Source: Haplodiscus bocki (Eukaryota). Taken from it: a stretch of 64,000 nucleotides of DNA. Within the stretch, counting starts at the first letter, position 1. Every line of letters begins with the position of its first letter. The notes beneath the pieces were generated by a model that did no database searches, had not been told where the DNA came from, and saw nothing but the letters and a program-made list of their open reading frames with translations. The position numbers and the translations under genes are program-made. This document shows, piece after piece, positions 9,815 through 54,939 of this stretch. The stretch is taken from contig OZ296659.1 of NCBI GenBank assembly GCA_965655095.1, positions 54,746,001 to 54,810,000 of the forward strand, written 5' to 3'.

Positions 9815-9818
9815 CGCA

Positions 9819-10495: not shown

Positions 10496-10639
10496 AAATA
10501 CACACGACTAACTTATGTAATGATCATTAAACCGTTGGTAAAACTGTTTCGTTCCGTGACTGATTGTCAAATGGCGTCGACTAGAGAGAAGAATAAACAA
10601 CCTTCTTCTGCTTGGTTATCCCTCGGTTAATCGTTCTCG

Positions 10640-10969
10640 TCAACATGGCTTGGTCCTAAGTGCCAAAGTAATGCTTGTGCGGCCGCAGCTCAAAAAGGGC
10701 ATCATTTCACCCATTTCATTGGCCAGAGTCAGAGTGATTGATTGAGATTGTGAATTGTATAATTGTTTCCACTGCAAATTTGAAAAACTCATTTGGTTCA
10801 CTTCTTTCCTTCGTCGTTGGTCCATCGACAACAAGCTTTCAAGTGGAATGGAACGCAAAAAAGCAGTTTGTGTCACCCAGGATCTCATTTCCAGTCAAGT
10901 CGCATTACAAAAACATTGTGTGATTTCCGGTTTTCCAGTCAACCGGCCATTGACCTGATTTCTTTACAA
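10640..10969 (-). pseudogene. PX: Minor capsid (penton) C-terminal fragment, copy 1
   Basis: Same sequence as 45996-46325 (TAFLRSIPL...FSNLQWK...MPFLSCGRTSITLALR). Confidence 0.75.
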
Positions 10970-11942: not shown

Positions 11943-12406
11943 CATTAATACCTCGATTTATCGCCAGCATTCATGCTTCATCTTTCCTGTCGGATAACTG
12001 AGGGTGGCGGTTAAACGAGAGTAGACCCCAGTTGAATCATCCACTTTTCAACAACGCGTTGGAAATAATTTTTCCACCAAAAAACAGTATTTATTTCTAT
12101 TGACAAACAACATTTTAACACGTTTTTGGCAAGGTGTTTTGAAGCCAACCAATGTAGCGAACACAGACCGATACTTTCCTGAAAGGACGAAACCTGTTAG
12201 TTAGTTCAAATTATTTTCAGTTCGAGTGAGGAAGCTCTCAAACATGTGGCGGTTATTTATGAGGGACGAAAACTGCAATTGGATCAATTCCACGGGCGAA
12301 GGCGGATAAGAGAGTTTGGCGTTTATTTACACCCCGCGAGAAAGCTTTCACGGCGTTAGCGCGAAGGTGGCGGTTGATGGAGTCGCGGATAATCAAGGGA
12401 TTACTG
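11943..12406. mobile_element. Tc1/mariner MITE, duplicated copy
   Basis: Same element and flanks as 1985-2448; left TIR mutated (CATTAATACCTCG). Confidence 0.8.
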
Positions 12407-12796
12407 TACCAAAAATTTTCAAACCACAAAACCATGTTTTTCGGGACCAGCTGTTCTCGGCTTGTAGCTTGTATAATCAATTTCGGAGATATACTGGTAA
12501 AAAACATTACTCAAAAAATTCTAAACTATAAACAATTTAAAACCAATGACCCAAATCTATTTAGAAACCTGTATTTACAATTTATCGAAACAAGAAAAAT
12601 AAAACTGTACATGTTGCATTTACAATCCTATTATATGTTCCTGTAACGAAAACTGTAACAATTCATCGTATTTCTTGCCAGTCAACTAGAACCAAAATGA
12701 GCGAAAGAATAAATCCGAAAAGAAGCAGAAACAGGACAAAACTTTTCACCCCGATCAACAGGTAAATATTCTCCTTTAAAAAACTCTCCACAGGTT

Positions 12797-13033
12797 TCAC
12801 ACACCCCCTAGAAGCCATATGATTATTTGGAGAGGGTGCATAGCATAAAGCGAGATCACTTTGGCTAATTTCTCGCCAGTTGTCGAGATTGTTTTTACTC
12901 TGTGGCAACATGGGGACGGAAAAGGCAATTTGAAGTTGTATCCATTTATGGTGGAGTTGCTTTCTTGACTTTTGACCCATCTGGATACGAGCCAGTCATC
13001 TGGACCGGACACGCCACAGCATCCGAACCTGAC
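12797..13033 (-). pseudogene. Duplicated tetraspanin terminal exon with a 4-bp deletion
   Basis: Acceptor intact; VRFGCCG...PSPCCHR then a frameshift (TGTC missing near 12900); the TM4 sequence remains out of frame down to 12663. Confidence 0.85.
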
Positions 13034-13602
13034 CTAAAACACAGTTTGTTAATAGATATTAATTAGGCAGGCAAGTAGTAAAGGAAGGGGGGGAGGTTGC
13101 TGCAATTTTTGACTCCCAAACCAAAAAAATTCGAAGTCAAAAAGGTCAAAGTACCAAATCAACCGAAACTGAATTTCGTTTACCAAGCACACAGTAAGTA
13201 AAACAACTGTCAATAATCTGTCAGAAGGCAAATTTTCTACTTTGATCTCACTGTTGGAAACCGAAACTGACCAAAACCAATAAAATTGATTGTCGACTGT
13301 CTTTTTTGAAAATTTCAAACTGATAAATCCTTTTCTCAACTATTGTAACGCAAGCAAAAATCAGCTTCTCGAACTATTACTAACCAGCACACCATCTAGA
13401 AAAGTTCTGTTTTACTTTTATTTAAATTCAATTTATCGGAAAACGGGAACCAGCAGAAAAAAGTCGTGGTCCATTGAAAATGGAAAATGAACAAAAACAA
13501 AAAATTCGAACGTTTCCGGCATGTTTCGCGTGAAGCTGACAATTGAACACCTCGGGACGACGACTTTTGCGTGTTACACATCTGTTAATTCGAACCTGTA
13601 CA

Positions 13603-16600: not shown

Positions 16601-17885
16601 AAAAATCGTATGTGGTATGGACAAAGCCTACTCGTGTGGAAGTTGCCATTCTAGACTTGCCCAAATTGTCTTTGTAAAAGTTTAAATACGAAGAAACGAT
16701 CCCTCGCTATTGGTCAAGTCAATTGAAAGTAGCCTATAAAGACACCGACTTTCTGTTATACTGGATTGAAACCCCTGATCTCTGAAAAGATATGGCGTCA
16801 TTCAAACACTTCCTTGATCTTTCAGATCACCCACAAGATCACTTTTGTGGTGATCCAACAAATAGCAAAGTTCCGCTAGCCATGACAGGTGAAGTACTAC
16901 GCAAAGTTTTACGCGGAGTTGTTTGTTTACGATCCAAACTGTATAGCATCAATTACGTTGGTGGGTTGAAACAGAGCGAGAAACGCGTACAATAGTCAGT
17001 TAAAAAGACTTTACATCACGATTTATTTAGACATTGCCCACTCTCAAAAGACAAAGTTGCCCGAACAATGACACAGTTGCGTTCACACTTTCATCAAATT
17101 GTAGTCATTGAGATTGATAAAGTCGCAGTCAGCTCATTTGACTACAAACGCTTCCTTCTGGAGAATGGTATTTCTTCACTTCCTTATGGGCGCTACAAAA
17201 CTGGAAACACCTTCAGTGACACTACAAATCGACAAACAGGTCGGTGTTTCAAAATGTTCGCAATTCTTTGGTTTCTTCAACTACAGTCTTTGGGAAACTC
17301 TTTACACTTTTTCTTCTGTTAGAGTACTCAAATTGTTACGATTTTTCGTCACTCTATAGTGACTCAACCTCTTTCACTGGTAGTTCCTCTTCTTCCACTA
17401 GTGACCTTAACTCTGAGTCGTCGAATTACAGCGAGAAAACGGAACCTGGTGGCTCTCCGCATGATAGGCTCAAAACATTACCTTCTTCTTGTAAATGGTG
17501 GCAAAAGCAAAAATTTTCTTTCCGTAACATCAAACTTCTACAGCAGTTACATTTTCATTGGTGTTTAAATACGTATGGTAAATGCTTGCGTGGTTCTTTT
17601 TTTATCTGTTCGTTATAGTCGAGGCTTTCTATTTTAGCACCGAACACAGATACTGGTTTCAACCAGCCTCCTATATGGGATAGCGATCTATCCGACGTTG
17701 CTGACTGGGATCAACTATCTTCAATGGCTAACGATAATGATGACTCTTCTAGTCAAGGCCAAATACGCCCCTTCATTGACTGGGAAGCCGAAGGAGAAGA
17801 CCCAGTAGATGTGCTAGCTTGCAAAAGAAACAGGAAGCGAGCCTGCTTTAGCGAAGGCAGTGACACGGATGAAACTGTGGCCTAA
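13603..17885 (+). pseudogene. POLB: pPolB copy 2 (same lesions as copy 1)
   Basis: ORF fragments match copy 1 at +9956. Confidence 0.9.
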
Positions 17886-17958
17886 AAATTACTAAACTAT
17901 CAACGTCCTCGCAACAAAGTCTTGCCATAAACTTCGAAATCATTACAAATCGACAAAA

Positions 17959-18504
17959 TTACCAGCTTCTATATTTAAATTGACTATATTTAACATGTTC
18001 ATTAAGGAAGCGTACTATATCAATTTCAAAGGTTTTCATTAAAGTGGGATTTTTTTGCAGTCTGTAGACGTTGAAGGGTTTCCTGATCAAATAGTGTACT
18101 ATATACCAGCAGTACAGACCAAAGGTTAGAATGAAGGTTTTGCAAAGGTAGATTGATCGCTTGGAATCCTCCGCATTTTCCGTATAGGTTCCAGAGTCTC
18201 CTGTTAGAATTGATCGTAATAGCATAGAGGCCTGCCGAGGCAATCCCAAACAAAAATTCCAATGTGATCACCATTGTGTCGATTGCACACAGCATAATCC
18301 AATGCTCAGCGCTTTTATTTGACGGCGAGGAGTTTCTTATTTGAAATTTTCAAGCTTGGTTCTTTTGTTCAGGGTACTGGTTTCCTGTTTTTCTACGTAG
18401 TCTATCTTGCATTTAGGGAAATTGTCCGACGACCAAACGCCACCAAAAATGTGCAATGCACTGGAACAATTTGTTGCAAATTTTGCAATTGGGATATTAT
18501 CCAT
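17959..18504 (-). pseudogene. PRO: Adenain-type protease, copy 2
   Basis: Same as 8003-8548. Confidence 0.8.
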
Positions 18505-20068
18505 CGAATAATGCATTCTTGGCGATGTTTCAAGCACAATCGGTTAACACTTGACTGAACCGCTGGCCAATTCGAAATAATCCAAATGCATCTTCAAGAG
18601 CAGTGGAAAAATACAATTTCAAGGTTCAACTCGGCCAGTGAGTTCGGGAAACAAATTTGAGCTTGCCAGCAGTAACAATCAGGCAATCCTTCGTTACAGA
18701 AACGGATTAAAATCAATCAACTTTCGAGTGAACAATACTCTCGTTGATAATGATTAAAGATGATTAAAAAATAACAAAAATGAAAAACCGCAATTTGATA
18801 AAAGCTCAAAATTATTTGCTAAACAAGCATAGACTTTTTCAGTTTTCCAAATTTTCTTTGCGCATTCCATATTATTTAAAGTTTGTCTTGCAACTTCATA
18901 ACGTCACTTTACAAAGATTTCATCTACAAGTAGAGCTTGCGGGGGCTAACAAATCAGTTTCCTTGAAGGAAAACATTTTGGCATCTCCTCTATTTTCTTT
19001 TAGGATATGAGAACAAATGAAACAAAATACATCACACAACCATACTTTCATTCATTTCATCAGCGGTGAAGACAGAGATACGTCATCATGAAAAAACCCT
19101 CTAATGAGAATTGTTGTTTTTGTGAAATTCCAGCGTAACTGGAAAGGATTTCTCCCTTGAATTTCCATGGGCTCCAGGTATTTCGGCACGTTTGGCAGTC
19201 GCATGCATACTGCCAGGCACATGAGTTATGTTCGGCGTATCGTTTCTCGCCATATTTGCAGAAGAATATTGTGATGCGTTTCTTAAATCCAATGGAGTTA
19301 CAGAGATCAAAGCTAGAGGGCAGATGGTTGGCTGATCTGCAAGTTCAGTAGAAAAAATCAGCCCGCGCTTCCTCGATTCTGACTTGTGGAAGGATAAATA
19401 TGTTTGTCATTGTCCAGTTATTTAGCGCAATAATAAGAGATTCCACACAATCTAAATTTTGTTGGCAGAATGTTGACAATTGAAACAAATCCAGAATTTG
19501 GAAGAGCAGAAAAAGAGGTAGTGCTGATTTTTTAACAGAAGAGACTCGCATGTCGATTAAAAATCAAACAATACCCACTTTAGCACCCAATTTTGGAATA
19601 TTTCAAGTTTGAATAAGGTAGTTTATTAAGATGTACACAGGGAGAAGCATATGTAATAAATTGGAGAATCATCGATTCAAAGAGGCATAATTTAGCATCT
19701 ACGTTCACATTTGGAGACGAGTTGCGTTTGACAAAATAGAATATTCGTACTGTTTTCACAAGTTCCTTATCAATGTGCATGTTCCGCGTGAGATCATCCT
19801 TACATACACTCCAAGATCCTTCATATAATCTGCCTACTGAAGGGTTTTCATTGTTCAGTCCAGAACACATATTTGATCCACAAAATGCAGAAAGCCATTC
19901 TTGCCATTTGCAAAATACCCTTTGTTTTGACCATTCCATCCTTCAAATCGTTTGAGATCAAGGTTTATCCAAACTTAATAGTTGGCTTTCGCGACAAACT
20001 TCAGATCATCAGCAAAGAGCAGTGTGTCGAAGTTTCAAAGATACCTGGTTAGTCGTTTATAAAACATA

Positions 20069-38146: not shown

Positions 38147-38521
38147 TCATCGTATTTCTTGCCAGTCAACTAGAACCAAAATGAGCGAAAGAATAAATCC
38201 GAAAAGAAGCAGAAACAGGACAAAACTTTTCACCCCGATCAACAGGTAAATATTCTCCTTTAAAAAACTCTCCACAGGTTTCACACAACCCCTAGAAGCC
38301 ATATGATTATTTGGAGAGGGTGCATAGCATAAAGCGAGATCACTTTGGCTAATTTCACGCCAGTTGTCCAGATTGTTTTTACTCTGTCTGTGGCAACATG
38401 GGGACGGAAAAGGCAATTTGAAGTTGTATCCATTTATGGTGGAGTTGCTTTCTTGACTTTTGACCCATCTGGATACGAGCCAGTCATCTGGACCGGACAC
38501 GCCACAGCATCCGAACCTGAC
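38147..38521 (-). CDS. Tetraspanin, last coding exon (EC2 loop with CCG, PxxCC, GC; TM4; stop)
   Basis: TTTTAG|GTC AGG TTC GGA TGC TGT GGC joins in phase 0 to WDLLQ of the exon at 53589, giving WDLLQVRFGCCG; six EC2 cysteines; hydrophobic TM4; open frame. Confidence 0.92.
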   Translation of the reverse strand, partial: VRFGCCGVSGPDDWLVSRWVKSQESNSTINGYNFKLPFPSPCCHRQSKNNLDNWREISQSDLALCYAPSPNNHMASRGCVKPVESFLKENIYLLIGVKSFVLFLLLFGFILSLILVLVDWQEIR

Positions 38522-38561
38522 CTAAAACACAGTTTGTTAATAGATATTAATTAGGCAGGCA

Positions 38562-38665
38562 AGTAGTAAAGGAAGGGGGGGAGGTTGCTGCAATTTTTGA
38601 CTCCCAAACCAAAAAAATTCGAAGTCAAAAAGGTCAAAGTACCAAATCAACCGAAACTGAATTTC
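38562..38665 (+). repeat. Left terminal inverted repeat of Polinton A
   Basis: AGTAGTAAAGGAAGGGGG...TTGCTGCAATTTTTGACTCCCAAAC...AAGTCAAAAAGGTCAAAGTAC pairs with 52285-52385. Confidence 0.9.
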
Positions 38666-39090
38666 GTTTACCAAGCACACAGTAAGTAAAACAACTGTCA
38701 ATAATCTTTCACAAGGCAAATTTTCTACTTTGATCTCACTGTTGGAAACCGAAACTGACCAAAACCAATAAAATTGATTGTCGACTGTCTTTTTTGAAAA
38801 TTTCAAACTGATAAATCCTTTTCTCAACTATTGTAACGCAAGCAAAAAACAGATTCTCGAACTATTACAAACCAGCACACCATCTAGAGAAGTTCTGTTT
38901 TACTTTTATTTAAATTCAATTTATCGGAAAACGGGAACCAGCAGAAAAAAGTCGTGGTCCATTGAAAATGGAAAATGAACAAAAACAAAAAATTCGAACG
39001 TTTCCGGCATGTTTCGCGTGAAGCTGACAATTGAACATCTCGGGACGACGACTTTTGCGTGTTACACATCTCTTAATTTGAACCTGTACA

Positions 39091-42000
39091 ATGTTTCCCT
39101 GTTGTAAATGTGATAAATTGTTCAGCTCAAAACTTGCTTTAAATGATCACAAGCGAAAGAAGCACAATTTTGAAGTCATTGATTTGGTCAAAGTTTTCAC
39201 ATGTGGTCATTGTGAGGTTTCTTTCGCAAAGTCTTGCAATGTATTGCGCCATCTGAAGAACCAAGGCAAATCATCGGCCAACTATCAATGTTTCTCTAGT
39301 CCAACCTACTTTGGAAACCTCTGAACAATGACTCAACACCAAGAACAGTATCATAGCGATGTATCTCTTGGTAGACCGAATATCAACGTCTCCGATCTAC
39401 TCGATTTCACAATTGAACCAGTTAATTCTAAATTTCAAATTCATCGACTCGAGCTTGAGGACTCGGATGGTTTGGAACCGTTCAACTACATTATTTCTCA
39501 GAAAGATGGAATCATTGCATTTGTGAAATCTTTATTGAGCGTGACCCCAAACGATAAACTCGGTCTAAGCATTGCAGTGAAACTGGAAAAGCCTTTGGAG
39601 AGCGAGGTAGTAAAGCTTTTTTCAATTCGACTATGTCTCGGGTTTCTTCTACGCTCACCGATGTCGAGTTTTTGCAGGATATGGATCCCTTGATAACACA
39701 GTTGAATGTCTACGCCACAGGTGGTTCGGGATGGGCGGTGGGAATATTAACACGATTGGAAATGAAAACAGTCTCCTGTAATAAAGTTACTGCCGGCTCA
39801 TAAATAGAAAAGCCACCAATTTTCAAACCACTGAATCCCTCAATTTCGAATGTTGTGAAGAAACGTGATAACTTCTGCTTCTTGTATTGTGTTGCAGCTG
39901 CTCTATTCTCTTTCATCCGAAGAGCTGATAGTCCAAAGACCCATAAAAAAACATTGAGCGACTGTCTTTCAACTCAAAGCTATTGCCGATACCTCTGTCC
40001 GCCATTCCATTTTTTGAAAAACGGATTTGTTGCTCAATCAATGTTTATCAGATGGAGAACTCCAAGTTGGTGTCCGTGTATCATAGTAAGAATTGAGAAA
40101 GGAGGCACAAAATTGACCTTCTCTGCCTAATAGATAACCAAGACAGTCATTATTGCCTGGTTAAAAATTTTTCGAATCTTATTCATTTCCTAAATAGGTC
40201 CAGAAGGAAGCAGGACAAGGGACCAGAATCCCGCTTTTGCCGAACCTGCTTCCAACAGATAATTAAAAAGATTTTCGAGAAACACGTTTCGTTTTGCGAA
40301 AGTAACACACCGCTTCAGATTCGAATGCCTTTTGAGTCACCAACCACGGAGTTTGTCATTTGGGAGAAAACACAAAAGAGTCCTTTTGTTGTTTGTGCTG
40401 ACCTTGAAGCAATCAATGTGACTTCAGCACAATTTCCTCGAACTAAAGGTCGGACAAGAGAAATTGAAAGGCAGCATGCAGCCAGCTTTGGAGCAGTCCT
40501 GGTTGATTCTAGGAATTAGTTAAACTTTGCATATATCTCCGTGAGGCTTTGGAAAAAAAATCTAATCTTTACCACTACTGTTGCTCTTATTCAAAATTTA
40601 ATTTGATTGTAGTCAATGTGATTTTCGTTTCAGCGAGTTGAATTGTTAAACAAGGTTTCTACCGTAGATTGGACTGTATTGCAAAGTGGCTGGATACGTT
40701 GCGTAATTGGGTATTTTGGTGCTATGGTGAAAAACATGTTTAGACGTTTAGGGGTTTCGGAGCAGCAGCGAAAGCGGATGTTAAACTTGGCAAATGTTTC
40801 GTGCTGCTTATGTGGCATGGATGTCGAAATATCAGCTCGAGTGATTCATCACTGTCATTTTCCGGGAACAATTTTTGGCGCTGCCCATTCAAAATGAAAT
40901 TTGAGAGCCAGAACGACGAAGTTCTTACCAGTCTTTTTCCACAATTTATCGAGATACGATGCTTACCAGATTTTGAAACACCTGAAACTAAAGGTGGGTG
41001 AAGAGCTGTCCGCAACTGCCAAAACTGATGAAACATTCATTTCATTCAGCATCAATATACCTGTCGGCACTTACAGAAAGCAATCGGGACAACTGGTTGA
41101 AATGTATCAATCTCTTCGCTTCCTCGACAGTTATCAATTTGTTTCTCAAAGTCTAGAGAATCTCGCTAAAACACTGAAAAAAGATGACTTAATTTTACTT
41201 CAGCAATTCTTTCACAACGTTCCGGACCAAGTTTTTTTCAGGCTCGCTCAGAAAGGTTTTTTCCTTACGTTACCTCGACAGTTTCGAAAAATTCAAAGAG
41301 CCTTTTCCAAACTATGCTGAAGCTTGGAAAATAGCCTCATTGGTGAAATCGATATTACTTATTCTGGCTATTAACATGCAGTCAGTGTTTAGAAAGATTT
41401 TGGTTGCCAAAACCTGGGAGACTATCAGGACTTGTATCTAAAAACTGATGTGCTTCTTTTACCTGATATTTGTGAAAAGTTTAGAAGTGTCTGCCTAAAT
41501 GTTTATAGGCTGGATTCCTCTCATTTTAATTCGGCTCCGAATTTGAGCTGAGAGTCTATGCTCATTTCAACAAGGGTTAAGTTGGGACTGTTGCAAGACA
41601 TTGACATGCTATTAATTTTTGAACGTGGCATTCGCGGTGGAATTAATGGAGTTGGAGATCTACGTCACTTCACCGCAAACAATGCTCAGTTCCACAATTT
41701 TGATCCGAGCCAACAAACGACATTCAGCGCTTTTTACGATGTAACAACACTTCACGCAAAAAATGATGCTTTTAGATAACTACCGGTGGAACACAGAAAT
41801 CACCATCGAGCAAATTTCGCAAACTTCTGAAAATTAAAGCGTTGGGTACTTTGTAGAAGTTGATCTGAAATATCCCCAATATCTACACGATCTGCAGAAT
41901 GGACTTCCCTTAGCACCTGAAAAGTTGATCATACGGTCCTCATGGCTTTCACCTTTTGCCAAGTCTTTTGGAATTAAAACCCTACAAACCCTACTCTAGG

Positions 42001-43652
42001 AATCTCGGCCTAAACTGGTCGAGACGCTATTGGACAAGAAAAATTATGTCCTTCATTACCAAAATTCGAAGTTTTATATGAAACATGGTTTGGTAGTCGA
42101 TAAAATGCATCGTGTGTGCGAGTTTGAATAAAGCAAGTGGTTAGGTGTGTACATAAAAAAAACACTTATGCGCAGACAAGCTAAAAATGACTTTGCAGAG
42201 AACTTACAAGTTGATGAGCAACGCATGTTTCGGGAAAAACATGCCAAACTTGACAAAGCGATCGGTTATAAATTTTGTCCAATCCTCAGCAAGCACAAAC
42301 ATTTGATCAGAGAGCAACTTTCAAATCCTTTCAGATTATCAAGCCAGATTTGGTTTCTGTATCATCCAAAAAATCGTATGTGGTATGGACAAAGCCTACT
42401 CGTGTGGAAGTTGCCTTCTAGACTTGCCCAAATTGTCTTTGTAAAAGTTTAAATACGAAGAAACGATCCCTCGCTATTGGTCAAGTCAATTGAAAGTAGC
42501 CTATAAAGACACCGACTTTCTGTTATACTGGATTGAAACCCCTGATCTCTGAAAAGATATGGCGTCATTCAAACACTTCCTTGATCTTTCAGATCACCCA
42601 CAAGATCACTTTTGTGGTGATCCAACAAATAGCAAAGTTCCGCTAGCTATGACAGGTGAAGTACTACGCAAAGTTTTACGCGGAGTTGTTTGTTTAGGAT
42701 CCAAACTGTATAGCATCAATTACGTTGGTGGGTTGAAACAGAGCGAGAAACGCGTACAATAGTCAGTTAAAAAGACTTTATATCACGATTTATTTAGACA
42801 CTGCCTACTCTCAAAAGACAAAGTTGCCCGAACAATGACACAGTTGCGTTCACACTTTCATCAAATTGTAGTCATTGAGATTGATAATGTCGCAGTCAGC
42901 TCATTTGACTACAAACACTTCCTTCTGGATAATGGTGTTTCTTCACTTGCTTATGGGCGCTACAAAACTGGAAGTACCTTCAGTGACAATACAAATCGAC
43001 AAACAGGTCGGTGTTTCAAAATGTTCGCAATTCTTTGGTTTCTTCAACTACAGTCTTTGGGAAACTCTTTCCGCTTTTTCTTCTGTTAGAGTACTCAAAT
43101 TGTTACGAGTTTTCGTCACTCTATAGTGACTCAACCTCTTTCACTGGTAGTTCCTCCTCTTCCACTACTGACCTTAACTCTGAGTCGTCGAATTACAGCG
43201 AGAAAACGGAACCTGGTGGCTCTCTGCATGATAGGCTCAAAACATTACCTTCTTCTTGTAAATGGTGGCAAAAGCAAAAACTTTCTTTGCGTAACATCAA
43301 ACTTCTACAGCAGTTACATTTTCATTGGTGTTTAAATACGTATGGTAAATGCTTGCGTGGTTATTTTTTTATCTGTTCGTTATAGTCGAGGCTTTCTATT
43401 TTAGCACCGAACACAGATACTGGTTTCAACCAGCCTCCTATATCGGATAGCGATCTATCCGACGTTGCTGACTGGGATCAACTATCTTCAATGGCTAACG
43501 ATAATGATGACTCATCTAGTCAAGGCCCAATACGCCCCTTCATTGACTGGGAAGCCGAAGGAGAAGACCCAGTAGATGTGCTAGCTTGCAAAAGAAACAG
43601 GAAGCGAGCCTGCTTTAGCGAAGGCAGTGACACGGATGAAACTGTGGCCTAA
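39091..43652 (+). pseudogene. POLB: pPolB of the full-length Polinton A (predicted introns 40515-40633, 43007-43089, 43345-43404)
   Basis: All motifs as in copy 1, plus the retained motif B YKLMSNACFGK (about 42205) and an HHCH-type motif; multiple stops. Confidence 0.92.
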
Positions 43653-43725
43653 AAATTACTAAACTATCAACGTCCTCGCAACACAGTCTTGCCATAAACT
43701 TCGAAATCATTACAAATCGACAAAA

Positions 43726-44270
43726 TTACCAGCTTCTATATTTAAATTGACTATATTTAACATGTTCATTAAGGAAGCGTACTATATCAATTTCAAAGGT
43801 TTTCATTAAAGTGGGATTTTTTGCAGTCTGTTGACGTTGAAGGGTTTCCTGATCAAATAGTGTACTATATACCAGCAGTACAGACCAAAGGTTAGAACGA
43901 AGGTTTTGGAAAGGTAGATTGATCGCTTGGAATCCTCCGCATTTTCCGTATAGGTTCCAGAGTCACCTGTTAGAATTGATCGTAATAGCATAGAGGCCTG
44001 CCGAGGCAATCCCAAACAAAAATTCCAATGTGATCACCATTGTGTCGATTGCACACAGCATAATCCAATGCTCAGCGCTTTTATTTGACGGCGAGGAGTT
44101 TCTTATTTGAAATTTTCAAGCTTGGTTCTTTTGTTCAGGGTACTGGTTTCCTGTTTTTCTACGTAGTCTATCTTGCATTTAGGGAAATTGTCCGACGACC
44201 AAACGCCACCAAAAATGTGCAATGCACTGGAACAATTTGTTGCAAATTTTGCAATTGGGATATTATCCAT
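43726..44270 (-). pseudogene. PRO: Adenain-type cysteine protease
   Basis: HW, D and Q...GLYC motifs, frameshifted. Confidence 0.82.
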
Positions 44271-44295
44271 CGAATAATGCATTCTTGGCGATGTT

Positions 44296-45514
44296 TCAAG
44301 CACAATCGGTTAACACTTGACTGAACCGCTGGCCAATTCGAAATAATCCAAATGCATCTTCAAGAGCAGTGGAAAAATACAATTTCAAGGTTCAACTCGG
44401 CCAGTGAGTTCGGGAAACAAATTTGAGCTTGCGCTAGCCTCTTCCGTTGATGTTATAACGGAAACGAGGAAAAAATTATTGACCTCGAAACCTTTCAATT
44501 TTATTCCGCTCCCATTTTTGGCAAACCCAAGAGCCGTAATTGTATTGTAATAGAGCGTAACCTTGTTGCTCGTGTCTATTGGTGTCCCAGCGCTAGATTT
44601 TTACACGATGTGGGTTGAACTTCTGGTTGGAAAAAGGCGAATACTTTAGAGCTGTACTTCGAAACAGCGAAGTTTTGACCATACACAAAGCTAACCATCT
44701 AATTGGCTCCGTTCCAAACACGTTTTCTTTCACAAAAAGCTTTGACCTGCTTGAATGATGAAACTTTTGTTAAAAATTTCAATATAGGGGTAAAAAGCCG
44801 AACCCTTTACGGGAGCTTTCTCACTGTCCGTAACCACTAGTTTCCTCATAAAGAGATGCTTTCTCAAAAATTGCTTGCACTTTACCATCAAGCGCCTTAG
44901 CTTCGTCATCGGTTACCTTCATAAAAAGCATCGTGTTACTGGGAGAAGGAAAAGTCGTAAATGAAGTGTGACGCCGGGTACCAAAAGTTTCTCCTAGTTA
45001 AAAAATTCAATATGTAATGCTCCAAAGAGCTCGGTCGTGCATCGTTTTTGGCGGTCAAAATCCACCTTCAATTTATTGAACTGCTGATTTTACTCAGTTT
45101 TTTTGCCAACTAATCATACCCCTGACACTTTGTCCCAGTTTGCTTTCCGTTTGTGTTATCTGTAAGTTCGGGTTCGAGGAACGCAGCATGAAAATAACAG
45201 TTGTTGCTGTGTGAAATGAGTTTACCGTCCAAAAACAATTCAGCGTCGGAGAACATTTTGTGAACCGTGTTGTTCGAAAAAACTAATGGATGATCATTGA
45301 CTTTGGCGCGGACTCCAACTTCTACACTCAACAGAATACGATTCAAGTCAATCAAGTTTTTTTGCTTCACCTGTAACAAAAAAGTCCAACTGGGGCCGCA
45401 ACATCCTACATATGTGAAACCCTCGTGATCGTAGGAACCTTCGTAATTGATTACCACGTTCCGCTTCTCAAAAAATTCTAGAGCGCTGTGAGTGACCCGG
45501 ATCTCAATTTCCAT
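44296..45514 (-). pseudogene. PY: Major capsid protein
   Basis: As 8574-9814; small in-frame deletion near 45310. Confidence 0.85.
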
Positions 45515-45518
45515 CGCA

Positions 45519-45851
45519 CTACCAGAAAAAGTCGTTGTTTTTGCAGCTGTTGGTAGGGCCAGATTGCTTGCTTTTTTTCCTTGTTGTCGGTGTGGTTTTA
45601 CTATCGAGCAAACTGAATTTCAGATAGAATATCTGACCGAATTCTCTTGGCGGAACTTGATTTGGAAATGATTTGTGTCGTTGTCGATTCGGGCAAGGAT
45701 GCTGTTGAAATGTTCCGTCGCTTTCGATTTGTACTGCCGGGCCGCTAAAAGAGGCGTTTCGGTGAGTTCCACGATGATGATCGTGATTACTTCGTATTTG
45801 AGAATCACATTCAGCATCCATATTTTTGTGTGTGATCAGCCAACTAAACAT
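45519..45851 (-). pseudogene. Core protein remnant with an internal deletion of about 345 bp
   Basis: TGCCGG|GCCGC junction near 45740 joins positions equivalent to about 10040 and 10385 in copy 1. Confidence 0.65.
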
Positions 45852-45995
45852 AAATACACACGACTAACTTATGTAATGATGATTACACCGTTGGTAAAAC
45901 TGTTTCGTTCCGTGACTGATTGTCAAATGGCGTCGACTAGAGAGAAAAATAAACAACCTTCTTGTGCTTGGTTATCCCTCGGTCAATCGTTCTCG

Positions 45996-47017
45996 TCAAC
46001 ATGGCTTGGTCCTAAGTGCCAAAGTAATGCTTGTGCGGCCGCAGCTCAAAAAGGGCATCATTTCACCCATTTCATTGGCCAGAGTCAGAGTGATTGATTG
46101 AGATTGTGAATTGTATAATTGTTTCCACTGCAAATTTGAAAAACTCATTTGGTTCACTTCTTTCCTTCGTCGTTGGTCCATCGACAACAAGCTTTCAAGT
46201 GGAATGGAACGCAAAAAAGCAGTTTGTGTCACCCAGGATCTCATTTCCAGTCAAGTCGCATTACAAAAACATTGTGTGATTTCCGGTTTTCCAGTCAACC
46301 GGCCATTGACCTGAGTTCTTTACAACGGCGATATCACTTTGATTTTGCTGAAGTTCTTGGCTGTGGCCATAAAATTTCTTTTTTGACTTCTGTCTCTGCT
46401 CGCCGTGTTGGCAGTCTATGACTGTGGTCAAGCCCAGTATGTTTTTCAAATCCCGTGATTTTGCTCGAATAACCAAAACCGTTTTGCTCCATATTCCCAA
46501 AAACTTAATGTGAAGTTCTTGCGTCTTCTTATCAACATTCCACGAAATACTTGTTGATCGCCATGTTGCATCTGTAGGGTGATGAGTTGTTGACGGGAGA
46601 AGTTTTTCATGGTCGTTTCGTGTACCACTTTTGACTAATGCCTCCATGATATCATCAATGGATGAATAGCAACCTGGCTATATATAGCGTCCTTCTGGAG
46701 CAGTGAACCTCAATGCTGGTTTCACTTCTCCACACTGGCGCGGCACTCATTGAGACAACCCCTGGTCGTCTGCTTGGAATATTTTTGCTCGGTGATTGAT
46801 GGGGCGGCGGTGACTTTGGGCACGGCGCAATTTTTGAAACAGTGATTTGGTGCTCAGTTATATTGCGAAGCATTACCGGCCAAGAAATTTCCACAAAAGC
46901 CACCTGCCAATCCCCGGAGAGAGTGATAGGCGTGGGTAGTTTGTTTCCTGGAAAAGTTTCTATGGACGCATTGGAAATTAAGTTTAGCGTGGATTCAGCA
47001 CTGCCAGAAGAAGTCAT
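45996..47017 (-). pseudogene. PX: Minor capsid protein (penton, single jelly-roll)
   Basis: LISNASIETFPGN, LPTPITLSGDWQVAFVEISWP, PGCYSSIDD, ILGDTQTAFLRSIP. Confidence 0.85.
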
Positions 47018-47107
47018 GCCCTGGGGAGATGAAAGCGTCCGGTTTTGACAGATTGTTGATGTTATGGGGTTTAGTAATTGCAGACACGTGCCCTCTTATC
47101 TTCTTCT

Positions 47108-48086
47108 TCAATTTGTTGTGACAAATTTCACAAGTTCAGGTTCATAAAATTTACCCTGTATGATTCCGTTGTTTATGTCCTTCAAAAAGTACGTAGGCGG
47201 TTTTTTTGTAGGTATGTCTGAAACTGTATAAAGCATTTCAGTGAACTGTATCCTGTAACTACGATGAACTGTTTCAATTTTCCTTCGTATGCGAACTCGA
47301 TCGCCGACATTAAACTTTGGTCGTTTTGGTGACACAGTATTGCAAAGAGAGATTAAGTAAGGCACGTCTTTTTGAGACACTTCGATTGGAGCCAAGTTAG
47401 TCATACGATTGATTCCATTGTTTTTCATTGAGACAAACTTTTCAAGTTGGTCAATGCATCGATTTGTGTCAAACTCAAGTAAGTATTTCAAAATGATAGT
47501 TTTCGAGGTTCTTATGTATCTCTCAGCCACAGCAGATTTTGTCTCGCTTCTTGTAGAGTAAATTTTTATACCATTATCTTTGCAGAATTTTGCAAATGCA
47601 CCAGCAAAATCTTTACCTTGATCAGCCCATATCTTTTCCGGATATTTTTTGGTTGCACAAACTTTTGGAGCATTTCGTTGCTTATTAATTGCAATAAATA
47701 TTTTCAGCGCTTCTGAACAAGCTTTAGATGTCTTAGACTTCACGCCCACGACCCAAAGAAAGTGACTCGAACTGTCGACCGCCACAAAGAGATACCTAAC
47801 TCCCAAATTTCTCTCTGGAAAGTTGCTGTATAACAGCCAAGTCAATAGACCAAACCTCATTCAGTCGATAACTGATAACTTTAAGTGTCGGAAAATGTTT
47901 TCGGGTAAGTTTAAACTTCGTGTAAGTTTCAATCGAAATCAAGTAGCGATTAACATGTTTGAGCGAGCAGTTCGTTGCCCTAGCTATATTTACTTGACTA
48001 TCAAACGCCATTGCTTCTTCTGGGTGTGTATAGGCATCGTGAATCTTGGTATATGCAACTGCGAACAGATCATCATCTTCAATCAT
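47108..48086 (-). pseudogene. INT: Retroviral-like DDE integrase (c-INT), one frameshift
   Basis: VWSIDLA...YLFVAVD...IWADQGKDF...KSAVAERYIRT; C-terminal KFNVGDRVRI...GKFYEPELV. Confidence 0.92.
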
Positions 48087-48283
48087 AACTCGACTTCCTG
48101 AACATTTTCAACAGGGAAAGTTGTCATGATTAGCACTTTTGTTTTCCAACCCTGAACAAGTGAAGTGAACCCAACCAAACACATGGTACCACACCGTATG
48201 GGTTTCGTTTTGATCCTTTACCCAACCGCTTTTGGCAGCACCCACAGAACCATTTCTTTGGCACCATTTGTGGAACAGTAGAT

Positions 48284-48965
48284 TCAGAGAGTCAGCCAAC
48301 TGCTGGGGGCTTCAGTGTCAAGTTTGAGACGTTTGCTTGGGGATTCGCCGTACGCTGTCCGGTTTTGGATTCTAGAACTCGTCTGTCTAGCGTACGTGTC
48401 TGCCAGCAGAAATTGCGGCAGAGCAAGTATCTCAACCAAATTGAGAAATTGCCAGGGCAGCTGTTTAGTATTCACTTAGAGAGTGGTTAGGAAGTCAGTT
48501 ATACCTATTGATGTATGTTGTTCATCAAGGAAAATGTTTTGGTTTATCTCGTCAACGGTGAGGCGGTTGTTTTTTTTGATGGCCTTTAAGACTTGTCTTG
48601 ATCGTTCAATTTTTCCTACAGTTAGTCCCGATTGAAGGAGGCCGGCTAGAACTTTGTCTGGTGTTTTGTTCTGTTGATGGTCAGTGTTTACTTGTGACGT
48701 CGATGTTTCTGCACTTGGTTTCTTCTGATCCTGAAACCTTGAGTTCAAATTGATTTGAGCACTCAACGCTTATTCCTTGTCGCAAGGTGGATTCGTGGTC
48801 CCTTCACTTTCGCTGTTTAAGGAGGTTGATGCTGGTACCTTAGCGGGGAATTGCTCCTTTCTGTTAATCCAGACGTTTGCTTTCGTTTTGTTGTTGATTT
48901 TTCAGAAAGCAGTACTTGTCGTTAGTTATTAGAAGAAACACTTTAAGGCTACCAGTTGATGCCAT
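48284..48965 (-). pseudogene. Conserved Polinton hypothetical protein (PW-like)
   Basis: RQVLKAI...IFLD...IGITDFL...FLNLVEILALP...WLTL; lies between integrase and ATPase; one internal stop. Confidence 0.5.
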
Positions 48966-48966
48966 G

Positions 48967-49287
48967 CTAGGACTTTAAAAGATTTAGAACCGACGGAAGA
49001 ATGACTTTCAATAAACGTAAACCTCTAAAAGCCAGCAGTTGACGCTTACGTTCGAGTGAAATGTTTTTCTTTGAACAGAGAGTCGCTATAATGATCTTTC
49101 CCCGTGAAACTGTTGATATTTTTGTTTGCACTCTTTTCCCAAGTTTGACATTCCCTCCTATCACGTTGAAGATGCAGTCGAAGAATAATTTAAATAATTC
49201 TTCAGAACAGTTCAAATTGAAACATCTTTTCAATGTGAGAGGAAATTTTTTGTACAAATCAACTTTATAAAAATTTCGTGAACGCAT
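48967..49287 (-). CDS. Small basic Polinton core-like protein (open frame)
   Basis: DCIFNVIGGNVKL...KRQLL..RG..LL..ILPSVL resembles the recurrent Polinton ECxxNxLxGNV family. Confidence 0.6.
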   Translation of the reverse strand: MRSRNFYKVDLYKKFPLTLKRCFNLNCSEELFKLFFDCIFNVIGGNVKLGKRVQTKISTVSRGKIIIATLCSKKNISLERKRQLLAFRGLRLLKVILPSVLNLLKS

Positions 49288-49300
49288 TGCCTATCTTCAG

Positions 49301-49955
49301 TTATAGTTGATCTGTTGAAGAGTAAAACAACGAGGGCTCGTCACCAGAACGCTAGGAATAATAACTCAGAGCTTTACTACTTCTCACGTCTAAATCAATC
49401 ATCAAACGACTCCAGGGTTTGCGAGTAGCTCTTTTATATGCTTCCATTGTGAGGTGTCGCTCATCTAAATGACGTCCCAAAATACCAACCTGTTCTGAAT
49501 CTCCCGGGCTATTGAAGAAAATAATCTGCGTGACATTCAAGTCGATTGTTTTTGAGCTTTTTGTATGTTGAAATAGATCGTATCTTGAAACCACCAAATG
49601 GATGTTGCTATGTCGACCGGCAATAACTAGTGCTAGAAATTTTTTCTCGCCGCTTCATCGAATAAATCATCCAGAACTAACAAGATCCCTTTCTTCTGCG
49701 CTTCAGCTTTTGCCAAAGACTTCCATTCTAATCCCTGAACAAATTCAATATCAACATGTGTAGACTCGCAATTCATTAAAATAATTCCATAATGTTCTTG
49801 ATAATGATTATAAAAGTAGACAATTTTGTCAAAGCTAGGTGAAAATAGTTTTGTTTGATTGACAATCATACGCCTAATCAGTCTGGTTTTCCCCAATTCT
49901 GCAGGACCCACAACAGAAACAAAGCAGTGAAGTTAGGATTTATTCGACAGTTCAT
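49301..49955 (-). pseudogene. ATP: A32/FtsK-like DNA packaging ATPase
   Basis: Walker A GPAELGKT, Walker B LLVLDD, GRHSNIH, AYKRATRKPW.RLMIDL; frameshifted. Confidence 0.9.
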
Positions 49956-50482
49956 TACTTTGGAGTGGGTAAAATATGACCTAAGCAAGCTGACAAGAGA
50001 ACTAGTATCCCTGATGCGAATCTATTGTCCGCCTCGCAAAATGTAGGGAAAGTTAAACAAAAACTGACAAGAATCAAAATAACTAAGTGATGAATCAATA
50101 TTACGAGTAAAGACCGATCGAGCTTTAAATCGTCAGCGCCGCAAAGGTTTACACTAAATGATGGTCGTTCCTGATGATTTCCATCAAAAACAAGGCGATC
50201 GATGTTACAGTGAGAAATGTTTGCGAAATCAGCTTCATCCATCACCTGTTGTTTTTGATCTACAAAAAGTTCACTGTAATAACCATTGGAACTTTTCGAT
50301 TCCAAAGTTTACTGTAATAACCACTGGAACTTTTCGATTCAACGTCTTGCATGGCAAACAAATTAATCGCTGGAAACTTTGCCTGCGCTGGAGAAACCCA
50401 ACCGTTTTCCACTTCGAATAAATTGAAGAGGTTAGAACGGAAAATTATCGAAATAATCAGACTTTAAAATTTTTAATGACGT

Positions 50483-50839
50483 TTACAGTAAAATTCCCGA
50501 AAAATGACCCAATAGCACGTTGTTTTTGAAATATTTCTCAGAAGTTAAGGTATAAACAAAACCGGGTCCCACGCTGTTGACAATCCTCATAAAACCATAG
50601 GCATCATGAAAGATTGAATGCATTCGTAAACTTTTTGAAAACTTCAAGTAGTTGTGTAGAAGGCTATCGCCTGCTCCAATATTGCCAGCACAAGGTGCCC
50701 TTGAAATTACTTCATTCAAATCTATTGTTTTGTCTACATAGAGACAAACTGCAAGAAAACTGTTTTTAGATGTTGTGTTTCTTGGGAACCAGTATGTTAC
50801 TTTCACAAAGTTTTCGCAAATGTCCTTCGAAGAAAACAT
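50483..50839 (-). CDS. Accessory protein, possibly PLA2-like
   Basis: IGAG-x20-HDAYG...GPGF; this GxG-to-HD spacing is similar to secreted and parvoviral PLA2. Inference only. Confidence 0.45.
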   Translation of the reverse strand: MFSSKDICENFVKVTYWFPRNTTSKNSFLAVCLYVDKTIDLNEVISRAPCAGNIGAGDSLLHNYLKFSKSLRMHSIFHDAYGFMRIVNSVGPGFVYTLTSEKYFKNNVLLGHFSGILL

Positions 50840-50849
50840 TTAAGTGCGC

Positions 50850-51700
50850 AAGTTTGAATGAGAAGAGTCTGTCCAAGAACAAAACTTTTACAAAAATGAT
50901 GTATCAATAAATGTATTCCCATCATAAGGAGAAAAAAGCTGCGAAGCGTAGTTGTTGCCTTCTTGAGCCGCCGAACCGATGATTTGAAGTGGTTGACTCA
51001 TACATTCGAAACAAGTGCATTGAGCATTTGTTACCACCAAATCAAAATCGAATGTCCGGCTGTGCCCAGTTACGTAAAGTCGCCCAAATTATTTCTGAAG
51101 AAGAGCAATGTATGACAATATGCTGTCTTTGAAAGGTCCATCTGAACTTTCAAGCTCGAGCAGACGTTGAAGAACAAACAATGCTTTCTCCGACCCAACG
51201 GATGCTCCCAGCGAATTGTGTTTTTCGTACTACCACAAACTTTTGAATTTGCAACCAAGTCTGTGGTCTTCTGATTCATGAGGGATTGCATCTTCTCACC
51301 TCTGGCTGAAATGAAAATGGCGTTTGATTTGTTGTTTGTTTCTGCTCTGAAAGTTTTCCGGATATGACACTGTCATCAATTTTACATGCGCATTGTTTGT
51401 TGTCGATAAAGCTTGAAGAATAGTCTTCTGCTTCACAAAAATTTCCACTTCAGCACAATCAGGAACATAAAGCAGGGTATTATGATGGTTCGAGGGCATC
51501 TTTTGGCAAATTCCTTCCAATTGCCCACAGCTGAATTTATTCTGAAGGTGTTCTCGGCTTAAAAAGTGAGCGTTGTGCGAGCACACGAGAATTTGAAGAG
51601 CATTGCACAGACTGGGAGACATCGAATCAGGAAACGTATTTCATGTGGTTTCAGAAAGTTTCTCCATAGTGGTAGTTTCGTCCGTATGAAATAGGAGCAA
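50850..51700 (-). pseudogene. Unidentified accessory ORF remnants of Polinton A
   Basis: Co-oriented ORF pieces 51070-51291 and 51296-51622 inside the element; no recognised motif. Confidence 0.35.
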
Positions 51701-52284
51701 CCAAAAGTTCGACGGAACTTGTTTGAAAACAGTTGTCATTTGTTTCAACTAGCGATTTTTTTTTAGAAACTGATTGTGGTACTAAATCTTTCAAAAATGA
51801 ATCGTCTCACAGTTGTTATCTCACCCACCTCTTACTGGAATTTTCCATTCGGTCCTCAGGAGTTTTCCATCAAAATGGAAGAAAAGCATACTTGCCACAG
51901 TCATGATCCTTGATAAGTCCGTGTTTGCAGCTGGTCCACGTGAATGTGCCAAGTGTGCTAGCAATCTGTAATGTATGAACGCGATACTGCTGCTACCGTT
52001 TTTCCTAGGTTTTGGGTTTGAATTCATCACTTATCGAGTGCTCGAGAAAAAAATTATTTATACGTTGGTGCTTCATGCTTTGAAAGGTTGGTTTGGCATC
52101 ATTTATTCTTTTCTCAGGGGGTACAATGCTTTATTTCCACTTTCCGAATAGACAAATTCTCGAAAGTGAAATATTTCTCTCTTTGTGGAACCAGTTGTCA
52201 CAGTTTGACTGATGAACAAATAAGTGTCAAAAGAATCGAAGCGATGTGTCAGAAACGACAACGACATTCAGCGTACTCAGTCAG

Positions 52285-52385
52285 CAAAATTCAGCTTTAG
52301 ATGATTTTGTACTTTGACCTTTTTGACTTGCAAAATTTTCCGTTTGGGAGTCAAAAATTGCAGCAAACCCCCTTCCTTTACTACT
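52285..52385 (-). repeat. Right terminal inverted repeat of Polinton A
   Basis: GTACTTTGACCTTTTTGACTT...GGGAGTCAAAAATTGCAGCAAACCCCCTTCCTTTACTACT. Confidence 0.9.
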
Positions 52386-53588
52386 CAGGCGGCAATCTTT
52401 TTTAGGAACTTTGATCTCTAAATGGGAAAATAAACTTCCATATATCAGTCTGTCAAAAAAGATCGGTCAAAAATAGGAATTTCTCCAAAAAGTAAAGCGT
52501 AAACATGAATGATGCTAGGCTTTTAGCGCTAAGAAATTAAATACAAAAACAAAATTAGAAACACAGAGGCGAAGCTTGGCTTCACAACCAACACTTCCGC
52601 CAAAGCAAAATTAGTGAACAAATCGAACAAGTAAAAGTGATTTTTGAAGGCACCATGGTACAACAAAACCTACTGATTAACCAATTAACCGGAAATTTAA
52701 TTAACTGTTAATTCTTTTATACAAGTGCAACAAGTACAAACTGATATAGCAGTTAATTTGCTTCATATTTAAAACAAGAGCGCACGCTGGAAAATAGGCC
52801 ACGTGAACACATTTTTCAACTGCGCGAGAACTTTTTGCAAAAAAGCGAGAGCGCATGAACAAACTCTAGGCAACATTAGAATCTACGCACAAATGCGAGT
52901 TGTGAACGGATCAGAAAAAAAAAGAATTGGAAGCCTGTGGTATCAATAACAATTGCTTGCGCAAGTGTAAAAATAATTACCTTCAATTTATTGCTCAACC
53001 GGCCAGTCATGAATCGATGGGCGAAAGCTGCACGTAACGGCTTGAAGAAAAAAAACACGAAAATAACATCTATAACTTAAGCTAACCAACTTTATGCCCA
53101 AAAATAGAGTCGAAAGGCTTTAAACTAATCGCTTAATGCCTTAAAATGAAATATCATGACTGCGTTTCCAGAACGTACCTCCTGCGTAAAAAATTGGACT
53201 CAGCCACAGGAACACGCATGAAAATCTCAAAAATCCCCGAATTTCAAAAAGTGAGGAAAATTATGAAAAAGAACACTTTGCCATCAATGATTTTTCTTCA
53301 CTTTTAAAATATGGCGAAAAGTAACAAACATATTCTTGACAGAAGTCTTTAGCTTACTTAAAGGTTAATTTCAAGCTCGCCCCAACTGATAATCAAAACA
53401 GAATGAGAAATTGCAGAATAGGTTTTCAATGGCTTCGAAAAGTCTAACTGACATTAAATTTTTCTAATTCAAGCTTTTTTTTCAAAGATTCGCCCAGAAT
53501 GTTATGGGTGTTTATTAGACGAAAAATTTTTGTATAATAGCTTCCTCTGATCAGAGGCGAATTTCCAAATCATCTAGAGGTTGTTCAC

Positions 53589-53770
53589 CTGTAACAGGTC
53601 CCAGGCTTTGGACTCAGAATCGGGGTTGTTACTAGAGGTGTAAGTTGATTCCAGAGAATTTCTCATCTGGTCGGAGAGCAAGTTGTCGATCATGAGCGAG
53701 TAGATGAGCACTGATATTATGAAGGTGGCTGTGATGATCACAAAGACCAGGTTAATAAATGAGTAGAAAC
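53589..53770 (-). CDS. Tetraspanin coding exon 2 (TM3 and start of EC2)
   Basis: TGTCAG|GT TTC TAC...AWDLLQ CAG|GTGAAC; phase 1 in, phase 0 out, consistent with both neighbouring exons. Confidence 0.9.
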
Positions 53771-54677
53771 CTGACAACATGAGAGACTATTTGTTATGCT
53801 CATGCGATTAGGGTCAATCAAACAATAGATTCCTATGCATGAATTCGGCAAAAACTAGGAACATATTTCAAACATGAAAGTTTTTGAAAATCTTTCTCAA
53901 ATCAAAGCTTTTACATGAATTTTTCTCACAGCTTGAGTTTTGGTTTCAATCTATTTCTGAATGTCATATTTTTAAGGTTTTTCATATGATACCGAAACGT
54001 CTACAAATTCAATCGCAATCGTATTTGATTATGATTTTCCACTCATATTTATACTATGGAAGGAAAATTTTTCTCACCCCGCGTGCGTTTTTTACGTTTC
54101 CTTGCCAATTGCACGATTCTGGCAAATTGCACGATTTCCAACTTTGAAAATTTTAGCACCAAGTTACAGCAGATATCCTCTAGAACAAGTCTCAAACAGT
54201 AATATTTCTCCAAAACTGTTTTGGCCAAAGTATCGTTATTTTTTTTGAAAAAACCCTGAAATTTTATGAAAAATTTTTAAATGAAGAAAAAGCAGAAAAT
54301 TTGTTCTAGAATGCGTATAAAAGGGCCATAGCTCCAAAATTTAGGGTTTTTCCGGAATATATTTCTCCAACTCATAAAAAACTGCAATTTTGCAGTAGAA
54401 TGTCTTTTTTTTCATCTAAAACACTTTTTAAACAAAATTGGAGAGAGGAAAATATCCCGTTGGTATCCGGGCTTATCGTTGTCTCAATAAACAAATATTC
54501 AAACAAGTCAGTCGAAGAATGCCGGGACACATAGCCGTTCTATATTACACAATAATCTAGATTCCATCAAAAACCTTCATTCTTACCTCAAAATTGATTT
54601 CGAAAAATTAATCAAAAAATTTCTACACCACACATTATCAATTACAAAATTGTGTTCAGAACAGCCTTGAGACGTAC

Positions 54678-54939
54678 CTAGTATCAGTTTATTGTTATTC
54701 AAAGTGCCCAAAAGCAGTAGAAAGGTTATCATGGCTCCAAAAATGGCGATGGCTATGAGATAGTTGGCACAGTTGGTGAGAGTTCCATTCGGAATTATGG
54801 CCACGATTTCTTCTCTGTGTGGTCGAATTCTGTACCATGCTCCGACGACGAGAGAAGTTGCAAATGAAAAAACTTTCACTAAACAGAGTCCGTAAACTAT
54901 ATAGCGTATCACCACTAAAACACCAGATTCCTTGGCCAT
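54678..54939 (-). CDS. Tetraspanin coding exon 1 (TM1, EC1, TM2); spliced protein about 272 aa
   Basis: MAKES...VVGAW...YLIAIAIFGAMITFLLLLGTLNNNKLIL G|GTACGT. The start could lie in a further upstream exon. Confidence 0.85.

Follow-up and report, generated by a model that had tools for sequence, protein, structure and literature searches.

The window analysed here is a 64,000-nucleotide stretch of the acoel Haplodiscus bocki genome (assembly GCA_965655095.1, contig OZ296659.1, forward-strand positions 54,746,001 to 54,810,000), and coordinates given without a prefix are positions within it. It contains a tetraspanin gene whose last intron holds a broken copy of a Polinton (Maverick), a virus-derived element of almost 14 kb. 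The gene is made up of three minus-strand exons with GT-AG intron ends, which join in phases 1 and 0 to encode 272 amino acids (aa) and a stop:

54678..54939, minus strand: tetraspanin exon 1, with the ATG, the first two transmembrane helices (TM1, TM2) and a phase-1 donor, GTACGT; it aligns to the orthologs P0001, P0002 and P0019
53589..53770, minus strand: tetraspanin exon 2, with TM3, the start of the large loop and a phase-0 donor, GTGAAC
38147..38521, minus strand: tetraspanin exon 3, with CCG, PxxCC, six conserved loop cysteines, TM4 and the stop; Pfam E 1.6e-13

This gene model had been proposed in a first-pass annotation made from the letters alone, and its splice-site ends, phases, length and four hydrophobic stretches were all reproduced; the four helices correspond to four peaks on a simple hydropathy scale. 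The Pfam Tetraspanin profile (PF00335) matches exon 2 over profile positions 79-138 (E 0.0023, below the curated cut-off) and exon 3 over positions 141-223 (E 1.6e-13), so that the two matches lie back to back. Exon 1 gave no Pfam match at 0.01; it is identical to three full-length orthologs at 27-29 of 87 positions. Two of these orthologs, P0001 (270 aa) and P0002 (267 aa), were among 18 relatives found by HMMER with exon 3, a query for which a word-based homolog search had returned no match, and the third, P0019 (268 aa), came from a separate search. All three pass the Pfam Tetraspanin cut-off. The spliced product is colinear with these 267-270-aa proteins from end to end, across both junctions, with at most four gap positions per exon and none in exon 2, and the six loop cysteines (C153, 154, 190, 191, 213 and 227, in CCG, PxxCC and GC) are kept in the tetraspanin and all three orthologs. 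Use of a different CCG exon ahead of the element, the alternative that the first-pass annotation had raised against its own model, was looked for with the ortholog queries, and none lies between exon 2 and position 38521. Exon 2 is single-copy in the genome, and an unspliced read-through from it would meet a stop 4 codons beyond the donor.

P0001 and P0019 were called as full-length orthologs on ENA contigs of 187 and 98 kb. If these calls are single open reading frames, the gene has no introns there, and the Haplodiscus bocki lineage acquired both of its own. A metagenome scan for DNA of the orthologs gave one weak 29-residue match. Within H. bocki, the intron positions differ from those of the paralogs on C1 and C4, and six tetraspanin paralogs match nearly the whole profile within one open frame.

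The last intron and the ends of the element are arranged as follows:

38522..53588, minus strand: last intron, 15,067 bp; with the element taken out it measures 1,243 bp, some of it a different high-copy repeat
38522..38561, minus strand: host spacer of 40 nt between the element and exon 3, with CTAAT, TTAAT and TTAAC, a TTTTAG acceptor and one copy of the target-site duplication (TSD)
38556..38561: left TSD, CAGGCA
38562..52385: Polinton/Maverick fossil, 13,824 bp, colinear with siblings of about 14.3 kb
38562..38733, plus strand: left terminal inverted repeat (TIR), with an AGTAGT end; about 170 bp, judged from siblings
52220..52385, minus strand: right TIR, with an ACTACT end
52386..52391: right TSD, CAGGCG, a 5/6 match to the left

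The geometry first described for the insertion therefore stands: the element lies 40 nt from the acceptor of the last intron, and the acceptor and the branch-point-like motifs of the spacer, any of which could serve as the branch point, are intact. The same 40 nt are identical in three copies of exon 3 (see below). No AG occurs in the 66 nt before the acceptor, 26 of which are the pyrimidine-rich tip of the TIR. The nearest cryptic AG, a CAG inside the TIR and 66 nt upstream, would add 66 nt in frame, with a stop before exon 3. The claim of two TIRs and a 6-bp TSD needs qualification, as both TIRs are present but match at only 123 of 159 aligned bases, and the two TSD copies agree at five of six positions, whilst the TSD is perfect (6/6) in five siblings. 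Contigs in both samples bridge the junction between exon and TIR. Among 15 of the 89 joints listed, none skips the element, the right flank being a high-copy repeat. Very high-copy short repeats occupy parts of both tetraspanin introns (52436-53099 and ~54110-54400), where summed contig depth is hundreds of times that of single-copy sequence.

Within the element, six gene regions are recognisable, all of them broken:

39080..43100, plus strand: pPolB region with 11 net frameshifts, bounds approximate; Pfam DNA_pol_B_2
43729..44300, minus strand: adenovirus-type cysteine protease with 5 frameshifts, projected from a sibling frame
44270..45620, minus strand: double-jelly-roll (DJR) major capsid gene with 9 frameshifts, projected from a sibling frame
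46000..47107, minus strand: gene at the minor-capsid position, with 4 frameshifts
47111..48311, minus strand: retroviral-type integrase with 2 frameshifts, longest open piece 250 aa; Pfam rve (PF00665), E 1.9e-8
49262..50021, minus strand: A32-type packaging ATPase with 2 frameshifts, projected from a sibling frame

The integrase, ATPase, capsid and protease thus lie on the host strand with pPolB opposite, as first annotated. For pPolB, DNA_pol_B_2 (PF03175) matched the window fragment at E 1.4e-5, below the cut-off, and a sibling frame at E 2.2e-9; an endonuclease-VII-like segment lies ahead of the polymerase core in the pPolB region of this family (window 40622-40894, plus strand; L033:5720-6934). 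The ATPase rests on Pfam Pox_A32 (PF04665) in the sibling frame (E 5.9e-8). The protease and capsid sibling frames have no Pfam match and were identified by atlas feature match, the protease with Peptidase_C5 clusters at 0.96-0.97. The capsid call, with DJR capsid clusters at 0.94-0.97, is the weaker of the two, its recognition score being below the tool threshold and the family being named on 10-23% of cluster members. No Pfam family matched the gene at 46000..47107, which from its place in the gene order is a candidate minor capsid (penton) gene. The copy has the features that mark a Polinton: AGT ends, a 6-bp TSD (5/6), pPolB, integrase, ATPase, and DJR capsid with protease. It is 85-88% identical to five close siblings and ~72% identical to five of a second subfamily. 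The family is large: in the 1.50-Gb assembly a first look gave 919 candidates for the left end, 40 of which were scored, and for the integrase 19,382, of which 150 were scored.

Although the element had been called complete, this holds for its layout and not for its coding capacity. Net frameshifts number ~46 after neighbouring gaps are merged, with 2-11 in each of the six gene regions, and there are 14 stops in 1913 codons. Its longest open frame is 250 aa, and two stop-to-stop frames reach 150 aa, against 8-16 in each of ten siblings, although none of the ten siblings compared is itself unbroken. Private substitutions, counted at columns where at least four of five other copies agree, amount to 1115 of 13,388 (8.3%), compared with 1.6-6.1% in the siblings. 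They fall almost evenly over codon positions 1, 2 and 3 (150, 136 and 166), and the ratio of nonsynonymous to synonymous private change (pN/pS) is 0.66-0.72. The element is an old fossil that decayed like neutral DNA after insertion.

The first-pass annotation did not report that exon 3 and the left half of the element are present twice more downstream, in copies that are ~98% alike:

1..10969: duplicate A (3' flank, exon 3 and 7.8 kb from the left of the element), which starts some 8 kb ahead of the window
10967..18666: duplicate B (3' flank, exon 3 and 5.6 kb from the left of the element)
2699..3077, minus strand: exon-3 copy A, an orphan with an intact acceptor but a frameshift (net gain of 4 bases)
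12663..13033, minus strand: orphan exon-3 copy B, frameshifted by a 4-base deletion, acceptor intact
45720..45750: site (at 45734) of a ~345-bp deletion in the main element only; the stretch is kept in duplicate A and in siblings

Since duplicate A retains the stretch, the ~345-bp deletion is recent. Over 3405 aligned element columns, 260 changes predate the duplication, 33 fall on the main branch and 17 on the stem of A and B, which puts the age of the duplication at about one-eighth of that of the insertion. Each orphan exon carries its own 4-base frameshift; we do not take breakage of both as clearly beyond chance, given that the 10 gaps between A and B in 7.7 kb lead one to expect ~0.5 per exon length. 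Between A and B there are 3 differences in 3405 columns of the left element part (3118-6532 against 13074-16488), but 48 in 1673 columns of the adjoining flank. The low divergence in the element part relative to the flank suggests gene conversion.

Such likeness between copies, together with the 3 differences in 3405 columns, could also be read as an assembly artefact in which haplotypes were left uncollapsed. However, in all four sequencing runs (two samples of one study) exon 3 is covered by contigs at 1.6-4 times the depth seen over exon 2, from which the duplication is likely to be real. The exon-3 contigs also carry letters common to A and B, and over lengths of 1.2-2.3 kb the single-copy contigs depart from the assembly at 0-3 letters, so that we consider an artefact very unlikely. 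Other duplications occur nearby: a separate 5.9-kb tandem duplication (98.4%; 23682-29603 and 29596-35505) lies within the duplicated region, and further duplications of 97-98% identity lie 16-31 kb before the window. Parts of the element are also tandemly duplicated at four other family copies (G000:C6:2098500-2134944, C7:39974490-40006678, C2:10051055-10085730 and C5:92507678-92533105), so that the duplication in the window is not unique.

The decay of the element serves as a clock against which the intactness of the host frame can be set. At the element's own decay rates, the 816-nt host frame should have acquired ~4.7 breaks (~2.7 frameshifts and 2.0 stops) and has none (P~0.009, or 0.004 if gaps are left unmerged). 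All three of the substitutions that separate the main exon 3 from both duplicates are synonymous, where 4.4 nonsynonymous changes were expected (P~0.012). As judged from these sequence comparisons, the host frame is under purifying selection since the insertion, and the unbroken frame supports a working gene. The converse, that the tetraspanin is a silent pseudogene unbroken by chance, might be read from its identity to the three orthologs, which is lower (36-42%) than theirs to one another (47-58%), and from its keeping 65 of the 95 columns invariant among them. This distance is phylogenetic, since over 68 shared residues the tetraspanin is closer to the orthologs (27-35 identical) than is its nearest relative, P0003 (23-28). 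Against the no-break probability and the purely synonymous changes, a pseudogene is hardly credible.

The absence of breaks and the synonymous-only changes in exon 3 thus indicate that the gene most likely still splices across the element. Our overall reading, to which we assign a probability of about 0.8, is that the last intron of this single-copy acoel gene carries an old, broken Polinton, which ordinary splicing likely takes out together with the rest of the 15-kb intron, so that the tetraspanin protein is not altered. The Polinton inserted just upstream of the branch-point-like motifs and the acceptor, touching neither; in this scheme transcription would pass through the element, and the junction from 53589 to 38521 would then be used. 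Tolerance could be explained by the CTAAT, TTAAT and TTAAC motifs downstream of the insertion and by the AG-free 66 nt before the acceptor. Fixation may have been by drift, in a genome where long, element-filled introns are normal. The element went on to decay neutrally, unlike the host frame, and two downstream duplications of exon 3 with half of the element followed much later, those copies breaking. The fossil itself presumably has no function. The earlier suggestion that the host pre-mRNA reads through a whole viral genome can be kept in part: read-through is likely, because the frame has been under purifying selection since insertion and exon 2 is single-copy, but what is crossed is a dead fossil and not a coding viral genome.

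Several points weigh against this reading. On the host strand the element contains 10 AATAAA motifs, as well as many sequences that resemble donors or acceptors. The test of the host frame is post hoc, the gene having been noticed for looking intact, which inflates the significance of the P values. On the main branch alone the signal is weak, with no nonsynonymous change against 2.8 expected (P~0.058), and the private divergence of the element, with its pN/pS of 0.66-0.72, may include some change that predates the insertion. Finally, in Caenorhabditis elegans a ~5-kb intronic Polinton remnant at eri-6/7 lowers expression of the downstream exons and drove rearrangements, according to the available text of PMC11414722, from which splicing here may be inefficient.

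The gene could work but be hypomorphic or mis-processed, if a sizeable share of its transcripts ended at poly(A) signals within the element, spliced to the cryptic AG that lies 66 nt upstream, or skipped to the frameshifted exon-3 copies. The host-strand AATAAA motifs, the CAG within the TIR, the perfect acceptors kept by both orphan exons and the eri-6/7 precedent would all accommodate this, as would the depletion of near-full-length DNA elements less than 2 kb from exons in mammals (PMC3088655, available part). In contrast, the insertion is old and present in both samples, and motif loss is not strand-selective: AWTAAA was lost at 5 of 9 sites on the host strand and 5 of 10 on the other, donor-like motifs at 4 of 11 and 7 of 17, and acceptor-like motifs at 9 of 32 and 10 of 32. 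The mis-splicing that had been raised as a possibility has left no trace as a selective pressure, splice and poly(A) motifs having been lost equally on both strands. We regard mis-processing as possible though rather unlikely; it differs from ordinary splicing of the whole intron in degree only, and is compatible with it.

It was also suggested at the outset that intron read-through feeds small-RNA silencing of the Polinton family. By its geometry the host transcript would be antisense to pPolB, and at least six genes have intronic copies in both orientations, so that both strands of the family would be transcribed. However, only 11% of the 25-mers in the window copy have an exact match in any of the five close siblings (for sibling C2, set against the remaining four, the figure is 55%), and in the second subfamily the share is 0.1%. 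The copy is decaying like neutral DNA, a stretch of ~345 bp has recently gone from it, and read-through is sense, not antisense, to most of the viral genes. A silencing role for this copy would thus be improbable.

The exons of one gene flank an 11-14-kb family copy on both sides in five other genes:

G000:C9:91329698-91342693: RtcB, 13.0 kb, last intron, ~170 nt from the donor
G000:C4:68262220-68275726: TFIP11, 13.5 kb
G000:C10:4569918-4584039: formin, 14.1 kb, perfect TSD, orientation as in the tetraspanin, 96 nt from the acceptor
G000:C6:76452854-76464213: neprilysin, 11.4 kb
G000:C2:129405705-129418358: G-alpha, 12.7 kb

These come from four Pfam scans of host-side flanks, covering 98 frames from 31 distinct ends; 148 frames from 55 ends (5 of 60 ends having been dropped as Polinton-in-flank, and 2 duplicate frames omitted); 140 frames from wider stretches around six one-sided matches; and 150 of 1389 frames, chosen by codon score, from the 7-kb flanks of 30 elements. 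The formin, neprilysin and G-alpha cases are 3 of 30 elements not chosen for genes, which is a lower bound. Intronic Polintons are thus routine in this genome and the tetraspanin case is not singular; its 40 nt is the shortest distance to a splice site among the six, a difference of degree. The first six host-exon neighbours were all oriented as in the window, and the orientation bias that this hinted at was dropped on a wider sample, where orientations relative to the host (window excluded) divide 3 to 2 among confirmed copies and 7 to 5 when one-sided cases are added. Paralogous tetraspanin genes also have long introns, of 8,419 bp and ~38 kb, the latter with a reverse-transcriptase element on the host strand; the Polinton proteins had no match in the long introns of these paralogs.

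A broader proposal would be that near-full-length Polintons spread into the introns of conserved housekeeping genes (tetraspanin, RtcB, TFIP11, formin, neprilysin and G-alpha) right up to the splice sites, because the AG-free, pyrimidine-rich TIR tip is nearly invisible to the spliceosome, and that read-through in both orientations provides a distributed small-RNA memory that silences the family. We offer it as a long shot.

Two open frames were noted elsewhere in the course of this work. One (L103:9148-9999, minus strand) matches a Monjiviricetes-type viral fusion glycoprotein (PF24664, E 4.5e-16) and probably comes from an endogenous element; the other (L184:1294-5262, minus strand), of 1323 aa and with no Pfam match, lies 1.3 kb from a Polinton end. 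In the window, a three-exon L-2-hydroxyglutarate dehydrogenase gene (55597-61687, minus strand) shares the strand of the tetraspanin and ends ~650 bp ahead of the ATG of the latter. The best named relatives of the dehydrogenase come from Convolutriloba macropyga (68%) and Symsagittifera roscoffensis (66%); of the 120 matches listed, none from any other animal exceeds 56%. A TTTTCAG lies 15 nt before the tetraspanin ATG and may belong to the 5' untranslated region or be a spliced-leader acceptor; in S. roscoffensis 30% of genes are given as trans-spliced in the available text of PMC9911081.

Taken together, the feature is real: the intron holds an old, dead insertion that probably does no harm, and others like it occur elsewhere in the genome. 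On its own the locus carries little weight, dead intronic transposons being common and at least five more cases being known from the same family. It is of modest use in showing that 14 kb of virus-derived DNA can be tolerated when inserted 40 nt from an acceptor, and it holds both a built-in clock for selection on the host gene, in the decay of the element, and a built-in control, in the two orphan exon copies. The case also points to Polintons as contributors to giant acoel introns, for which gene-annotation pipelines should allow.

Acoel genomes consist of 61-70% repeats, and the sources for this figure (PMC6451197, PMC9911081; available parts) give Mavericks a 4.5% share of the P. naikaiensis assembly, where introns hold 32,110 elements, and put the mean intron of S. 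roscoffensis at 2.5 kb. Near-full-length Mavericks in named conserved genes are not described in the accessible main text of these two papers, the supplements of which may list some. No paper that turned up deals with near-full-length Polintons in acoel introns (subscription journals lying outside the search), the accessible part of PMC8504770 lists no intronic Maverick, and eri-6/7 was the sole direct precedent found in the literature on a Maverick or Polinton within an intron.

Compared with the animal Polinton fossils of PMC8097293, as far as its available text describes them, the window copy has the same AGTAGT...ACTACT ends, 6-bp TSD, pPolB, integrase, A32 ATPase, DJR capsid and protease, the same two inward-pointing gene blocks on opposite strands, and the same degraded state; unlike them, its ATPase lies in the capsid-strand block rather than with pPolB. 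That source finds 96% of vertebrate Maverick loci degraded and defines intact by unbroken frames, TIRs and a 6-bp TSD, a definition outside which the 13.8-kb window copy falls. In human and mouse, full-length DNA elements are depleted within 2 kb of exons, though some persist (PMC3088655, a study, in the part available, that does not cover Polintons). The window copy resembles those that persist, being a near-full-length DNA element inside the 2-kb zone and less than 50 nt from an acceptor, and with other family copies coming to within 96 nt of an acceptor and ~170 nt of a donor, this zone looks leakier here than in mammals. The closest parallel is eri-6/7, where a Polinton likewise lies between coding exons and local rearrangements then duplicated host exons and pieces of the element. 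In the accessible text of PMC11414722, no strain carries a full-length copy, exons are inverted, and expression effects and trans-splicing were measured, whereas the window has a near-full-length copy and no inversion.

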